From Candidatus Heimdallarchaeota archaeon (GTDB lineage Archaea; Asgardarchaeota; Heimdallarchaeia; JABLTI01): 24,000 bases of DNA. Positions 12,791 to 20,911 of this stretch are shown here, in pieces. The DNA is taken from contig JAUWKS010000013.1 of assembly GCA_030614005.1 (NCBI GenBank), positions 38,337 to 62,336 on the forward strand, given 5' to 3'. Positions within the stretch are counted from its first letter, which is position 1; each line of letters opens with the position of its first letter. Both the position numbers and the translations under genes were made by a program. The notes beneath the pieces were generated by a model. It had not been told where the DNA came from and did not search any database. It saw only the letters and a program-made list of their open reading frames with translations.

Positions 12791-14773
12791 GTGACCACGC
12801 CAGCTAAGGGAGATAAGATAAAAACAAAAACCCCCTACAAGACGCAACCCGATCTTGATAAAATCATTTCAGGTGGTAATTGGTACAAAAAACTCATTGA
12901 AACAATGGATGATGGAATTATTGCTACAGATATGAATAGAATTATTATTTATGTTAACCCTGCTGCTTGTAAAAAATTAGGTTATACTGAAGAAGAATTA
13001 CTTGGAAAAAGCTCTTTAGAAATTGTTGTTGAAGAAGATCGCGCTAGAGTCACTCGAGAATCAGCAATACGCTTTAGTGAAAAAGTCTCTACACAATATG
13101 AAATTACTTTTAAAACAAAAGTTGGCTCAAAATTTCCCGTTCTGATTAGTGGTTCACCAATTTTGGATGAGAATAATCAAACACTTGGCACTTATGCATT
13201 AATTACTGATATCAGAGATAGAAAGGTTGTAGAAAAAGAGTTACGGGATAAGAATAATGAATTACAAAATCTCTATAACAATTTATTGGAGTTATATCAG
13301 CAACTGGGTGCAATAATCGCAGAGACAACTACAGTACCCTCAACTGAAATTTTGCTTTTCACCTCCAAGCATTGTGTGTATTGTGCACCTGCAGAAGAGG
13401 TCCTACAACAGGTACTTGCTTCTTACGCTGGAAAAATCACTTACAGAAAAGTGGATATTGATGAAGAGCCTGAGTTGGCAGCAGAACATGAGATTCTTTC
13501 CCTCCCAACAATTGCAATTGGCGAAGAACAACTAACTTCTGTTCCTGATATCTATAAATTACATTCAGCATTATTCAGTGCATTAGTGCCCGAAGAAAAG
13601 TTCAGAAGAACAAGACAAGAATTAGATAATATTATTGATAATTCACCTGTTGCTATTTTTACTATAAATTCTAAAGGAACGGTTACCAAAAGTAATCCTC
13701 TTGTCGGGATACTGACCGGTGTGGAATTACAAGACATTACAGGTCATGATGCACTAAATCCAGAAAAGAATGGAGAATCACTATTTCCAAAATCACTCAT
13801 TAAGCTTTTTAAGAAAGGCCTAAAAGGTAAGACAATAACTGAAGATCGTTTACGTATCAAAGACTATTCCTCTGAGAAAGATGATCCATTTTCAATTGTT
13901 AGTTTCAAAGTAGTTCCAATGGCTACTAAAGAGGGAGAAATAAACGAAATTCTTGTCTTATGTGAAGATGTCACTAAACTGGCTATGCAAGAAGAAGCAT
14001 TGAGTGAATCCTATACCAAATTAGAAGACCTGAATGACAAGCTTTTACAATTAAATAAAGATAGGTCGAATTTTGTTGAACTTACTTCGACTAAACTTTT
14101 AGAACCATTAAGAAACTCAAGAGAGTTGATAGATACTATTCTTCGTGGGCAATTAGGCATGCTGAGTGAAGAACTATTTGGCACAATGGAATTTCTGAGA
14201 AATAACTTAGAAAAAGTATCAAAAAGTATTTTTGGCATTATAGAATTTTCAAATATAGAAGCACAAGACTTCAGTTTGAAACTTGATGAACATAACCTTA
14301 AGGATCTTATTTCACAAACAACTAGTTTAGTTGGGTCTGTAGGTATACAAAAAAGCTTTATTGGGACAATTGAACTTTCTAATGAAGTCACTGTTTGGTG
14401 TGACTCTGAACAAATTATTCGTGTTTTAAGAAACTTAGTTTTGAATGCTATCCAATTCACTCCTATAAATTGTAACATTCACTTTTCAGCTGAAGATAAG
14501 AATGGTCTTGTTGCTGTTTATTTGAAGGATAACGGTTTTGGTATTGCTAAGAAAGATCTTAAAAGAATATTTGAGCAATATGTAAAAACTGATCCCGAAA
14601 GTTCTGGGTCGGGTTTAGGGTTATCCATGGTAAAAAGTTTAGTGGAAGCTCACGGAGGAACCGTTAGAGCAGAATCGGAAGGCAAAAACAAAGGTTCAAC
14701 GTTTATGTTTACTTTGCCAACCAATAAAGCATCATATGAAAAACTAATCTCTAAGAAAGAGAAATCAAATTAG
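12791..14773 (+). CDS. PAS - thioredoxin-fold (CxxC) - PAS - degenerate HisKA - HATPase_c sensor protein (histidine-kinase-like, H-box His absent)
   Basis: PAS1 runs from YKKLIETMDDGIIATD to ALITDIRDRK. A Trx fold follows: ILLFTSKHCVYCAP...ILSLPTIAIG. PAS2 runs from IIDNSPVAIFTIN to VLCEDVTK. The DHp-like helix SNFVELTSTKLLEPL sits where SHELRTPL is expected. HATPase boxes are intact: N (VLRNLVLNAIQFT), G1 (DNGFGI), F (IFEQY), G2 (GSGLGLSMV). GTG start with GGAG upstream. Confidence 0.85.
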   Translation: MTTPAKGDKIKTKTPYKTQPDLDKIISGGNWYKKLIETMDDGIIATDMNRIIIYVNPAACKKLGYTEEELLGKSSLEIVVEEDRARVTRESAIRFSEKVSTQYEITFKTKVGSKFPVLISGSPILDENNQTLGTYALITDIRDRKVVEKELRDKNNELQNLYNNLLELYQQLGAIIAETTTVPSTEILLFTSKHCVYCAPAEEVLQQVLASYAGKITYRKVDIDEEPELAAEHEILSLPTIAIGEEQLTSVPDIYKLHSALFSALVPEEKFRRTRQELDNIIDNSPVAIFTINSKGTVTKSNPLVGILTGVELQDITGHDALNPEKNGESLFPKSLIKLFKKGLKGKTITEDRLRIKDYSSEKDDPFSIVSFKVVPMATKEGEINEILVLCEDVTKLAMQEEALSESYTKLEDLNDKLLQLNKDRSNFVELTSTKLLEPLRNSRELIDTILRGQLGMLSEELFGTMEFLRNNLEKVSKSIFGIIEFSNIEAQDFSLKLDEHNLKDLISQTTSLVGSVGIQKSFIGTIELSNEVTVWCDSEQIIRVLRNLVLNAIQFTPINCNIHFSAEDKNGLVAVYLKDNGFGIAKKDLKRIFEQYVKTDPESSGSGLGLSMVKSLVEAHGGTVRAESEGKNKGSTFMFTLPTNKASYEKLISKKEKSN

Positions 14774-17416: not shown

Positions 17417-19066
17417 ATGCCAGAAGTAGGTCTAGGAGAATTCGATGATCAAGAAGTATTAAAGAAATCGCTTGTGGCATTCGAAAAAACCAAAAAAGAG
17501 ATTCAAGATCATATTCTTGAAAGAACCGCAGTTGTTCCTGATGTAACTTTAACTGAAATAGAAAAAGAATTCAATATTTCCACAGAACTCGCGAAAGCAA
17601 TTTTTGTGTTAGAATTTGAGTATTATATTCCGAGGAAACTTTCAGCAAATTGTTACCTCTCTGAAATGAAGAGACTTACAGAAGCTCAATATGAATTGCC
17701 GGATATTTACTCTTTTAGAGTAAGGTATTCAATGGAAGAAGGTTTTTGGATTAAATATCTAGTAGTGGATCTTCCAAAAAAACTTGAACATAAAATGGGT
17801 AAACTGAAAAAAATCTATTGTTCTCTATTTGGCGACCTCGCCGCGGATAAAGAAGACGCAGCCGTATATATTATCGAAAGAGCTTTTATCTGTAGTGAGG
17901 TAATAAGACCAATTATCCATTCTTGGATGAAAGAGCATCATCGAGCAAAGTATTCTGATTGTGTGAAAACATTTTTGTGTAGCATCCAACGAAAAGCAAG
18001 AGAAAAGTGTTTACCATTAGTGGAAGAAATTGGCAATAGATTTCATTCACAGATGGATTCACTAAGAAGTATCATTACCGAAATTCGACCAAAAGGGTGG
18101 ATAATGAATGCAAAAGAAGAATATAATAAACTTTCAGAGAAACTAATACTATTTGAAAAGGAAGACTACCTTGATTGGCGATTAGCTGCAGAAATTATTT
18201 TAGAAACAATGTTGTTGAGAGATTTTGATGATCAAGATAAAGAAGAAACAGATTTTGTAGTTAAAGAAATGCCAAAACAAAAAGAAAATATTGTAACTCA
18301 AATGATAACAACAAAAAAGGAAAAATACCTCACAGATGATATTTCAGTAATTCTTACAAAAATAGTTGATTTATCTGAAGAGAACCAGAAACCGCTAATA
18401 GAAGAGATGATACAAGAAAATTATGATCATGCAACAGTCAAAAACCGAGTAAAACCAGCTATTTTCTCAAAGATTTTTCTTGAAAGGATTATGACTGAAC
18501 TGATGATTGGAAATAAAGAAATAGTCAAAATAACAAAGAAATTTGATGTACAACTTATGTTTCGCTTATCTCCTGCTGGAGGAAAAGAATTTCCACATTT
18601 AGGAATAGATGACAAAATAACTGGATTGCTTGAAGAATTTGTTATGGATATTCTACAAAAACAAAATGAGCTAAAAATGATTTCTACAGAAGAAACTATG
18701 AGGGAGAAAGCTGAGCAATCTATTGAAGAGAGCGAAAAACACTCAGAAGAAGTAGACTCGACAAAGAAAAGTCAAGTGGTTGGGAAAATAAAGGAATCGA
18801 GTGAAAAGGAATTATGGTTATTTGTAAGAGATGAATACTTGAAAGAATTATTCGATAGTGAGAAAGAATTAGTTGCAGGAGCAAGAATTCTGAAGAAATA
18901 TTCACTTGAACTGGGATTATTAATGACTGAGGGAGAAGCAACGTCATATCTAACCTCTGAACTCGATAAGAAGGGCTTTTCTATTGAAAGCTCAAGCAGA
19001 GAAGATATTGATTCAAATGTGTGCAAAATCGTTTTCAAACAGTTGAAAGAATTGAGGAAATACTAA
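17417..19066 (+). CDS. Hypothetical protein, 549 aa, K/E-rich and predicted mostly alpha-helical; no family recognised
   Basis: Long ORF with protein-like composition. ATG at 17417 is preceded by GGAGAG 9 nt upstream; the track TTG at 17390 is less likely. Possible winged-helix-like segments occur near both termini (VTLTEIEKEFNISTELAKAIFVL; ARILKKYSLELGLLMTEGEATSYL), but I cannot support a call. Confidence 0.75.
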   Translation: MPEVGLGEFDDQEVLKKSLVAFEKTKKEIQDHILERTAVVPDVTLTEIEKEFNISTELAKAIFVLEFEYYIPRKLSANCYLSEMKRLTEAQYELPDIYSFRVRYSMEEGFWIKYLVVDLPKKLEHKMGKLKKIYCSLFGDLAADKEDAAVYIIERAFICSEVIRPIIHSWMKEHHRAKYSDCVKTFLCSIQRKAREKCLPLVEEIGNRFHSQMDSLRSIITEIRPKGWIMNAKEEYNKLSEKLILFEKEDYLDWRLAAEIILETMLLRDFDDQDKEETDFVVKEMPKQKENIVTQMITTKKEKYLTDDISVILTKIVDLSEENQKPLIEEMIQENYDHATVKNRVKPAIFSKIFLERIMTELMIGNKEIVKITKKFDVQLMFRLSPAGGKEFPHLGIDDKITGLLEEFVMDILQKQNELKMISTEETMREKAEQSIEESEKHSEEVDSTKKSQVVGKIKESSEKELWLFVRDEYLKELFDSEKELVAGARILKKYSLELGLLMTEGEATSYLTSELDKKGFSIESSSREDIDSNVCKIVFKQLKELRKY

Positions 19067-19085
19067 AAAAAATCATTATCCTCTT

Positions 19086-19223
19086 TTATCTGTCCTCAAA
19101 AATTGAGAAGGATCTACTCGTCGTTTTTTGATTAGCATTATCAGAAGAATTGTTACCAATAACATCTTTCTTACGGTAACTGCGGCTCAGATTTTCCGCC
19201 CAAAAATCTAGTTCAACTGGCAT
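19086..19223 (-). CDS. Possible unannotated small ORF (45 aa)
   Basis: Read by hand as MPVELDFWAENLSRSYRKKDVIGNNSSDNANQKTTSRSFSIFEDR*. The ATG is preceded by GAAGGT ~11 nt upstream, the same SD flavour as other genes here. It is below the track length cutoff and has no homology evidence. Confidence 0.25.
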   Translation of the reverse strand: MPVELDFWAENLSRSYRKKDVIGNNSSDNANQKTTSRSFSIFEDR

Positions 19224-19672
19224 GCTATTTCTTTACCTTCTCAAGATTGGTTTGTAGTGACAATGATATTTCAATAATTCAATAAAAACAACCGCAATAT
19301 CGGGATAGTTACCTCAATATTAGCTTCTAATAGAATTTAGAGATGAAAAAGAGAAGAAAAAAAGGTTTTTGTAGCGACAAAAACACCGATGCTTTTTCCC
19401 ACAAAACATAAAAAGAATCAATAAAAAGTACAATTAGAAAGTTACTAGACTTCAAATCCAGAAAAACTAGCTGAAGTTACCAGTACAAAGAAAAGTTCCT
19501 AAAATCAATGTTATCTTAGATGGGAACATCAAGAAAAAGCGGGGATATGTTTAACTATTCAAAAAGTGGTTAGATAAAAAACATCACCAAATAAACAAGT
19601 ACTTGGTACAGATAGATTTTGAAGGAAATGAAATACAGACCAAACAATTGGTAATAGGTTGATGAAAGAACA

Positions 19673-20911
19673 ATGTCAATGAAAGCAGATTTCATAAAAG
19701 AATTAGAAATTTCTACATTCTCAAAACCAATTCTAAAAGAAATGGGCGTAAAAGCAATCTTCTTAGTCACTTTTGACATTATCCTAGGACCAATAGCCTA
19801 TGTCAATAAACTCTCTACAGAAAAAAGTGAGTATCTCGAATTTTTGCAACAGAATATAGCGCACCTAGGAGAATTTTACACTGGAATATCACATGCACAA
19901 ATCGATAAAGTAACAACAAGAACCGGAGAAGAAATGCTTGTAGGACGAGCAACAAGAAAAGTAAATGAAATGGAACTAATAGATATCGCCGTAGCTTTAG
20001 TGGACTCAACAGAATATCATAATGAAATTGTTAAGATGCTAAAATTCGTTGTGAGAACGTCATATGGCAATCCAAAAAACTTTTGTGATTTATTAGACAG
20101 AGTGTTGCTGGAATATCAAGACCTCGGAAAGAAAAAAGCAGAGGCAGGAAAATTCGCCGTATTCAAAGATGCTTCAAAGGAAAAAGTGGCGAATATAGCA
20201 AAGCTATATCACAATTGGAAAGGAGTACTATTCATAGATTTTGAAGGAGATAACATAAACAGCTCATTTATGCCGGATTGGATTGAAGCGAGTAAAATAA
20301 ATTCGCAGGAATTAGCTCAGAAAACGAGAAATATGTACGCAGAAGGAGTTATCATTCCAAGATCTAAACAAATATTTTCGATGGTAAGCATAAAAGGCAA
20401 ACAAGTAATCGTTGTATCAACAAATAATTCACGCTATGTAACAATCATTTTCCCGACAGCAGATGGAATGACAAAAATATCAACAATAGCAGAAAATATG
20501 GATATTATTAACGAGGCACTGAGCGAAGTGGGAATGCAATTCAGCACAGATGCAATGAAGAATACTCTCGAGATAATCGATAAAAGAATAAGAGAAAATG
20601 ATACCAGCGTCTTAATGAAAGAAGTAATTGTAGTAATGTTAAGATCCGAAGAGTTGATGCCAAAGAAAAAGATAAAACAAGAAGAATTTGAAGCATTTCA
20701 GGGAGAAATACAAAAGAAATATTTTCAAGGATTGAATAAAGCATTCGAAGAATTTGATGGCACAAAAACAATCTTAGAAATAACTCATAGAGTAAATGTT
20801 AGTTTAGAGCAAATGGGTGATTTTGTGGTGTTTTGTATGACAAGGGGAATTGTGCAGGTCTTTACTAAAAATGGCCGAACAAGAAAAACAGATGGAAAAG
20901 TTGTTATCTAA
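19673..20911 (+). CDS. Hypothetical protein with two roadblock/LC7 (longin-like) type domains and a C-terminal winged-helix domain
   Basis: 412 aa. Domain 1 (aa ~5-150): helix, then GVKAIFLVTFDIILGPIAYV hairpin, helix, three strands, helices. Domain 2 (aa ~170-285): KVANIAKLYHNWKGVLFIDFEGDNINSSF...IFSMVSIKGKQVIVVSTNNSRYVTIIFPTADGMTKISTIAENMDIINEAL, the classic roadblock pattern. C-terminus: GTKTILEITHRVNVSLEQMGDFVVFCMTRGIVQVF (wHTH-like). The CDS is solid; the domain calls rest on pattern only. Confidence 0.6.
   Translation: MSMKADFIKELEISTFSKPILKEMGVKAIFLVTFDIILGPIAYVNKLSTEKSEYLEFLQQNIAHLGEFYTGISHAQIDKVTTRTGEEMLVGRATRKVNEMELIDIAVALVDSTEYHNEIVKMLKFVVRTSYGNPKNFCDLLDRVLLEYQDLGKKKAEAGKFAVFKDASKEKVANIAKLYHNWKGVLFIDFEGDNINSSFMPDWIEASKINSQELAQKTRNMYAEGVIIPRSKQIFSMVSIKGKQVIVVSTNNSRYVTIIFPTADGMTKISTIAENMDIINEALSEVGMQFSTDAMKNTLEIIDKRIRENDTSVLMKEVIVVMLRSEELMPKKKIKQEEFEAFQGEIQKKYFQGLNKAFEEFDGTKTILEITHRVNVSLEQMGDFVVFCMTRGIVQVFTKNGRTRKTDGKVVI

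Follow-up and report, generated by a model that had tools for sequence, protein, structure and literature searches.

Longin GTPase-activating protein (GAP) complexes (GATOR1, folliculin and C9orf72-SMCR8) control lysosomal nutrient signalling in eukaryotes. NPRL2 and NPRL3 (Npr2 and Npr3 in yeast) are the longin and winged-helix subunits of GATOR1/SEACIT, the GAP for RagA/Gtr1, and SAMTOR feeds a small-molecule signal of the S-adenosylmethionine (SAM) type to GATOR1. Here, we describe T, our shorthand for an unannotated gene at positions 19673-20911 (+ strand) of a 24,000-nucleotide stretch of a Heimdall-group Asgard archaeon (hereafter the window; contig C123, 38337-62336) and for its 412-residue product, whose predicted fold most resembles NPRL2 and NPRL3 and which we read as a candidate regulator of small GTPases. 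The GAP longins FLCN, NPRL2, SMCR8 and C9orf72 carry a specific Gly-Pro (GP) motif where the loop leading into strand 2 ends; the motif adjoins the arginine finger, is present too in one class of Asgard longins and has been reported absent from non-GAP longins (PMC12290439). Asgard longins of the Folliculin/SMCR8 type, which combine the GP motif with the arginine, were proposed as relatives of the eukaryotic longin GAPs (PMC12290439), and an NPRL2-like architecture of a longin and a small C-terminal domain was described from Thor and a few Loki genomes (Liu et al., bioRxiv 10.1101/2020.10.19.343400). Asgard NPRL2-like longins, FLCN-like longin-DENN proteins of Heimdall archaea and GP-motif longins are already published; our literature searches retrieved no description of a tandem GP-longin/roadblock/winged-helix family or of its neighbours.

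The open reading frame (ORF) 19673-20911, which comprises 412 codons and a stop, is a genuine gene that is strongly conserved in several families of Heimdall-class Asgard archaea, as seen from the ORF list, its homologues, their alignment and an AlphaFold2 model. A search of 5.8 billion proteins returned 25 homologous protein clusters with 44-91% identity, all 390-470 residues long, all named 'hypothetical' and labelled Heimdallarchaeota, Gerdarchaeota, Thorarchaeota or 'Asgard group'. An exhaustive phmmer search of 1.8 billion representatives added about 20 further relatives of ~400 residues with 16-25% identity. We used three alignments: the close family, a wide family that includes the distant ~400-residue relatives, and homologues of the first domain of T that are linked to Arf GTPases. 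The close-family alignment contains 51 invariant columns, and its conservation begins at residue ~4, which fixes the start codon. T is single-copy in the assembly (3.6 Mb, 90% complete).

T consists of an N-terminal extension, a longin domain (D1), a linker, a roadblock-like domain (D2), a helical connector, a winged helix and a short tail. The AlphaFold2 model of the full-length protein was built from a 26-sequence alignment and has a predicted local distance difference test score (pLDDT) of 81.5 and a predicted template modelling score (pTM) of 0.66. A second, independent model of residues 165-412 (40 sequences; pLDDT 90.5, pTM 0.85) contains the same elements. The N-terminal extension (residues 1-24; 19673-19744, with all window coordinates on the + strand unless stated) provides a strand (8-10) and a helix (17-23) ahead of D1, and its P19 is nearly invariant in the wide family. 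D1 (residues 25-147; 19745-20113) is predicted to be a longin-type beta-beta-alpha-beta-beta-beta-alpha-alpha domain of the GP-motif class, with strands 26-35 and 39-46, helix 53-73, strands 79-81, 87-97 and 100-110, and helices 116-130 and 134-147. DSSP analysis of the model and Foldseek alignment to longin-containing chains both assign the longin fold to residues 26-147.

D1 has the GP motif expected of a longin GAP and a candidate arginine finger. The sequence FDIILGP (F34-P40; 19772-19792) spans the end of strand 1, the loop and the start of strand 2, so that G39-P40 lies between strands 26-35 and 39-46 of the model, at the defined place of the GP motif. G39 is invariant in all three alignments. 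P40 is equally fixed among the Arf-linked homologues and in the close family, and nearly invariant in the wide family. The candidate finger is R92 (19946-19948), located at the end of strand 4 in a 'VGR', 'IAR' or 'VAR' context and nearly invariant in all three alignments; R95 and K96 are invariant in the close clade only. The strand 1-2 and strand 4-5 hairpins of a longin sheet lie on the same edge, and therefore R92 or R95 is a reasonable candidate for an arginine finger.

The remainder of the chain contains a second alpha/beta domain and a small helical module. The linker (residues 148-181; 20114-20215) varies in length among homologues and is disordered at residues 152-161 (pLDDT <50). D2 (residues 182-286; 20216-20530) is modelled as a roadblock/MglB-like alpha/beta domain with no GP motif, consisting of strands 182-189 and 194-196, helix 211-223, strands 235-240, 243-249 and 255-261, and helix 269-286, with G184, D189 and P201 kept family-wide. 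It superposes on the dynein roadblock, a Streptomyces roadblock, Prometheoarchaeum and Thorarchaeota roadblocks, MglB and LAMTOR, with TM(target) values of 0.43-0.56, probabilities of 0.6-0.95 and E-values of 0.03-0.2. D1 and D2 have only their fold in common, since an internal-repeat test detected no sequence similarity between them (hhalign E 0.13). The helical connector (residues 287-354; 20531-20734) contains helices within 292-350, a short strand (328-332) and P330, which is invariant across the whole T family. It leads to the C-terminal winged helix (residues 355-400; 20735-20872), which is formed by helices 355-359, 367-374 and 378-390 and wing strand 394-398, is modelled with pLDDT ~95 in the 165-412 model and contains a DG motif (G363) and an invariant R391. 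The winged helix is acidic (pI 5.6, with five lysine or arginine residues) and its third helix is hydrophobic, features that fit protein binding better than DNA binding; it is thus probably a protein-binding module rather than a DNA-binding one, as judged from its composition. No Pfam HTH family matches it.

This architecture agrees with an earlier note on the window, which was made from the DNA letters and proposed two roadblock/longin-type domains and a C-terminal winged helix-turn-helix (wHTH). The two strings that it quoted are placed correctly at G25-V44 and K183-F199, the secondary structure and coordinates that it proposed for both alpha/beta domains are reproduced by AlphaFold2, and the modelled helices and wing strand fall at nucleotides 20735-20872, where it had placed the wHTH. 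The roadblock/longin sandwiches are present in the models, Foldseek aligns them to multi-longin proteins with probabilities of 0.97-1.00, and no profile places T in an unrelated family. The likeness that the note drew between an 'hhhhxFxxxLGP' element and the longins of Nprl2, SMCR8 and C9orf72 matches the GP motif described for longins of the GAP type (PMC12290439).

What does the assembled chain of T resemble? The best matches of full-length T in the Protein Data Bank (PDB) are Fuzzy-Inturned chains (Foldseek E 4e-5) and KICSTOR-GATOR1 chains, one of which, with a chain length that fits NPRL2, aligns over 385 columns (E 4e-5, probability 1.00). They are followed by mouse CPLANE-RSG1 chains (3e-4), MON1A/CCZ1/C18orf8 (4e-4) and the yeast SEA complex (7e-4). 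The probabilities of the top multi-domain matches range from 0.91 to 1.00, and the weaker single-domain matches include a Lokiarchaeal roadblock-longin protein, MglB and a Loki Rag-like GTPase. Residues 165-412 best match a GATOR1 chain of 363-370 residues, the length of NPRL2 (E 2e-5, probability 1.00, 251 columns), then a yeast SEA-complex chain, and then GATOR1 chains of 400-460 residues, whose lengths fit NPRL3. The layout of NPRL2 and NPRL3, a longin with a winged-helix C-terminal part, is matched as a whole by T (Foldseek E 2e-5 to 4e-5, probability 1.00, over 251 and 385 columns), with TM-scores of only 0.19-0.28 for these alignments. Like T, NPRL2 and NPRL3 begin with a longin in which a Gly-Pro hairpin precedes strand 2 and an arginine is conserved around strands 4-5, and they have a C-terminal part with a winged helix, which they use for protein-protein contacts. 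T differs from both: an extra roadblock-like domain is inserted between the GP-longin and the winged helix, its arginine is located in a shorter hairpin, and it has no match to Pfam NPR2 or HTH_NPRL3. Furthermore, T is single-copy, and neither a paralogous partner nor a DEPDC5-like gene was seen among its conserved neighbours, DEPDC5 not having been searched genome-wide.

The structural matches also bring two other groups of GTPase regulators into consideration. The tri-longin RabGEFs (Fuzzy, Inturned, Mon1, Ccz1 and HPS1/4) are, like T, multi-domain chains with consecutive longin-type domains. However, these proteins contain three longin domains and operate as heterodimeric guanine nucleotide exchange factors (GEFs), whereas the third module of T is helical with a winged helix and its D1 has the GP motif. 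In the MglB and Roadblock-LC7 proteins, it is D2 whose structure is matched, and the actinobacterial conservon, which comprises a roadblock protein (CvnB/MfpD), a DUF742 protein (CvnC/MfpC) and a Ras-like GTPase, likewise brings together a roadblock fold and a small winged helix, a pairing seen repeatedly in systems that regulate GTPases. The conservon modules, in contrast, are separate proteins encoded beside their GTPase, while T is a single chain with no accompanying GTPase gene, and the Robl_LC7 and DUF742 profiles of these families do not detect T. These comparisons raise the possibility, in our view a rather unlikely one, that T binds a small GTPase not as a GAP but as an exchange factor or a passive scaffold, resembling a tri-longin RabGEF or Ragulator/MglB. 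The top structural matches of T include chains of Fuzzy-Inturned and of MON1A/CCZ1, D2 resembles MglB, LAMTOR and roadblocks, and longin domains are commoner in GEFs (PMC8534245). If so, the winged helix might supply an exchange function similar to that of DUF742/MfpC. The Ras-like GTPase of a conservon has a roadblock protein as its GAP, and the GEF activity resides in the DUF742 winged-helix protein (PMC11343762); relatives of the T winged helix give weak DUF742 and HTH_NPRL3 matches. Yet the DUF742 and HTH_NPRL3 profiles miss T itself, no third longin domain was found in either model because residues 287-400 are helical with a winged helix, and the GP motif of D1 is the very feature that non-GAP longins are reported to lack (PMC12290439).

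A genomic connection to small GTPases is provided by homologues of D1. Proteins of 252-258 residues that are homologous to D1 (hmmsearch 1e-23 to 1e-27, within 1e-20 to 1e-27 for short Arf-operon proteins in general; hhalign 98.9%, E 2.8e-17, 125 columns) are encoded 0-7 nt downstream of an Arf-family GTPase gene in the same tight operon. This arrangement is seen at four of four loci from three genomes and two families of another Asgard class (L098 3680-7188, - strand; L100 5638-7690, + strand; L104 5107-7343, + strand; L106 4065-7334, - strand), and the GTPase genes match Pfam Arf over the cut-off (1e-18 to 4e-22). Apart from these operons, no direct genomic link connects this longin family to a small GTPase. 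They constitute the main non-structural argument for T as a GTPase regulator, and they also offer a natural handle on its client. The C-terminus of the 252-258-residue proteins gives only a same-register hint of the T winged helix (E 0.04, not significant). The host genome encodes ~40 Ras-superfamily GTPases, at least four of which are of the Rag/Gtr type, so that candidate clients exist; it has no clear orthologue of the operon Arf-like GTPase, the best protein being 39% identical. Beyond the longin gene, the operons continue with a gene for a B12-binding corrinoid-type protein (3/3 loci scanned) and then a URO-D/MtaA-type gene (2/2 loci scanned). The Arf-longin operon hence couples a small GTPase and a GP-motif longin to a corrinoid methyltransferase system.

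We propose, with a probability of roughly 55%, that T regulates a small GTPase as a longin GAP of the NPRL2/FLCN kind, in which D1 is catalytic and D2 and the winged helix form a scaffold. We favour this reading because of the predicted fold, the GP motif together with R92, the Arf operons, the acidic winged helix and the presence of candidate clients in the genome. T would constitute a regulatory platform for a Ras-superfamily small GTPase, structurally similar to eukaryotic NPRL2 and NPRL3. D1, which carries the G39-P40 hairpin and R92, would dock at the nucleotide pocket of a GTPase of the Arf or Rag type and stimulate its hydrolysis of GTP. D2 and the acidic winged helix would provide surfaces for dimerisation or scaffolding, as do the C-terminal parts of NPRL2 and NPRL3 and the roadblocks of MglB and Ragulator. 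The T family adds to the known longin proteins a conserved, single-copy, structurally NPRL2/3-like Heimdall-class protein that sequence profiles have missed, and T would represent a testable archaeal relative of the Rag-regulating machinery.

Several observations weigh against a GAP of this kind. The global template modelling (TM) scores of the T models are low (0.17-0.29 in Foldseek), which indicates that the likeness is one of domain types and their order rather than of a rigid body. The Foldseek output contains no chain names, and the chains that we take to be NPRL2/Npr2 and NPRL3 were recognised by their lengths and by the make-up of the entries. The model places R92 inside strand 4 and not in a loop. 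In whole-genome searches at E<=10, T is not matched by Pfam NPR2 (PF06218), Folliculin (PF11704), Robl_LC7 (PF03259) or Fuz_longin_1, and the profile support for a roadblock or longin assignment that the earlier note had suggested seeking did not materialise; DUF742 (PF05331) and HTH_NPRL3 do not match T in these searches either. The T profiles align to the ~385-460-residue Folliculin-positive Asgard proteins of the same class with an hhalign probability of <1%. Finally, none of the 29 loci of full-length T in which neighbouring ORFs were clustered has a GTPase gene as a conserved neighbour, and the neighbours that are conserved, namely a helical orphan, a methyltransferase-fold protein and an HD hydrolase, do not point to GTPases.

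The same neighbourhood bears on a reading in which T works independently of GTPases. T may be a ligand sensor or adaptor whose two alpha/beta sensor-type domains control the winged helix, and its partners in metabolic or transcriptional regulation would be the methyltransferase-fold protein and/or the helical orphan. We consider such a function unlikely. It accords with a conserved neighbourhood of methyltransferase-fold gene, HD phosphohydrolase and helical orphan that lacks a GTPase, and with weaker Foldseek matches of T to PAS/GAF sensors and to LuxR-type receptors, which join a ligand domain to an HTH. However, these sensor matches (probability 0.08-0.6) are far weaker than those to NPRL2 and Fuzzy, the acidity of the winged helix and its hydrophobic third helix are unusual for a DNA-binding module, and the homologues of D1 share operons with Arf-family GTPases.

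Profile searches as a whole set T apart from described families. Neither T (hmmscan, nothing at E<=1) nor ten of its distant homologues gave a usable Pfam or NCBIfam match, and the T profiles gave no hhalign signal against the host genome's own Folliculin-positive proteins, taken singly or as alignments. The same genome searches do find 16 roadblock-like places and two to three Folliculin-type longins elsewhere than T. Since all profile searches miss T, it is assigned by predicted structure and motif alone, and it is a separate, divergent family. When the close- and wide-family profiles were compared with PDB sequences, the matches were a spurious helical one to Get3 and designed proteins only. 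The T winged-helix profile weakly matches the C-terminal wHTH of ~330-residue proteins that form a large other Asgard family (L036 1098-2105; L037 1267-2256, - strand; L038 1325-2308, - strand). These proteins have an N-terminal roadblock/LC7 domain, a proline/glutamate-rich linker of ~100 residues and two winged helices, the last of which is T-like; their own matches to DUF742, HTH_47 and TrmB are weak, with HTH_NPRL3 matched in one case.

The distribution of T was surveyed across the phylum in 400 genomes. Five families carry full-length T, always as a single copy. Of these, four belong to the class of the window, with T in 9/11, 1/1, 27/31 and 10/12 genomes, and the fifth (f33), both listed genomes of which carry T, is kin to the window only at the phylum level. 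T was not found in two other families of the window's class (0/3 and 0/22 genomes). Outside the class, one family has an evident full-length relative, and two families have relatives of the N-terminal domain in ORFs of ~253 and ~440 residues. A Folliculin-type protein of ~440 residues is present in 21 of the 22 genomes of the family in which T is absent from all 22, and in none of the 31 genomes of the family in which 27 carry T. T and the Folliculin-type protein are thus largely complementary across the families of the class, with the exception of the window's own family, which has both. The Asgard GP-motif and NPRL2-like longins have in common with T a longin domain bearing the GP motif and an arginine. 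However, the Folliculin- and NPRL2-like longins of Asgard archaea are recognised by sequence profiles, whereas T is invisible to the Folliculin and NPR2 profiles and has a tandem longin-roadblock organisation and is present in Heimdall-class families, where it mostly complements the Folliculin-type protein.

A methyltransferase-like protein is a recurrent companion of T. In three families, a gene for a protein of 308-361 residues lies directly 3' of T at a distance of 2-155 nt (L042 8270-9313; L043 8174-9256; L044 8134-9102; L045 2412-3404, - strand). The gene falls into three homologous sub-families (hhalign 96% and 84%) with a class-I methyltransferase-like core (PDB profile match to CurJ, 5e-5). 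Two sub-families keep the GxGxG SAM motif; the third has lost it (VCIIGEN), and this loss suggests a non-catalytic role there. The window's own genome has an orthologue of the gene away from T, on contig C34 (34718-35662). The recurrent link of T to methyl-transfer proteins may represent an input to T. One elaborate version of this idea is that T is a single-chain counterpart of the NPRL2-NPRL3 pair, in which a catalytic D1 and a non-catalytic D2 form an intramolecular pseudo-heterodimer, the winged helix recruits a sensor and the methyltransferase-fold neighbour is a SAM-type sensor that feeds T, much as SAMTOR serves GATOR1. We regard this scheme as doubtful; if true, it would place a GATOR1-type nutrient-sensing GTPase switch in the archaeal relatives of eukaryotes.

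In the same genome, contig C117 (7757-9454; L096 1402-3099) carries a gene for a 344-residue class-I methyltransferase that is weakly related to the T-linked methyltransferase-fold family and, after a gap of 78 nt, a gene for a 194-residue Ras/Gtr1-like small GTPase. In one genome of a sister family, a gene for a 171-residue Ras/Rab-like GTPase (Pfam Ras 8e-51; L044 6214-6726, - strand) is divergent from T across a 119-nt gap; it was not seen next to T in a congeneric genome.

The earlier note had also suggested that T acts jointly with a 353-residue longin-DENN-like protein encoded in the window. A dedicated complex of the two proteins, analogous to FLCN-FNIP or C9orf72-SMCR8, is in our estimate highly improbable. 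The two genes are only 1.5 kb apart in the window, and the same arrangement occurs in one (G082) of four same-genus genomes sampled. However, they lie on opposite strands with two other ORFs between them, the 353-residue family has three detectable clusters only, and its genes are mostly not near T: the other 27 loci examined, which include those of the same-genus genomes G083, G085 and G090, the close relative L022 and all other-family loci, have no such gene near T. Conserved synteny hence does not support the pairing. The gene for a ~330-residue protein that follows T in other families was considered as a homologue of the 353-residue gene and encodes the methyltransferase-fold protein instead.

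The conserved neighbour upstream of T in the window is the helical orphan c3 (17417-19066; 549 residues, or 558 from an upstream TTG). In the window's family, c3 (548-559 residues) is always located upstream of T on the same strand with a spacer of 0.55-0.85 kb. In two other families, c3 homologues of 492-560 residues, or a 267-residue short form that spans the N-terminal part only, are divergently adjacent to T. The residues W111, F138, E154 and W170 of c3 are invariant, Pfam and PDB searches yielded no assignment, and hhalign comparison indicates that c3 is unrelated to T. A c3 paralogue is present in the same genome on contig C36 (3248-4240). In two families, a gene for an HD (YfbR-like) phosphohydrolase precedes T. 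The 606-bp spacer between c3 and T in the window (19067-19672) contains a 45-residue ORF on the - strand (19086-19223) that starts MPVELDFWAENLS. Among five same-genus genomes, the best-conserved parts of the spacer are the start region of this ORF and an upstream block, GCAATATCGGGATA (+ strand). A minus-strand ORF of ~45-50 residues occurs in the spacer of most loci of the window's family and is called as a 49-50-residue gene in relatives.

An Rfam search over the whole window gave no match. The window has a G+C content of 31-37%, and besides T it contains genes of a typical archaeal housekeeping kind, namely those for a beta-CASP nuclease, an Alg9-like glycosyltransferase, ThiF, PAC2, hydantoinase A/B and a PAS histidine-kinase-like protein. 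The last of these, a PAS-thioredoxin-HATPase_c gene (12791-14773, + strand), keeps its synteny with c3 and T across the whole family of the window, where it lies two to four genes upstream. Its parallel with actinobacterial conservons, which combine a kinase-like sensor with a roadblock and a winged helix, may be coincidental.

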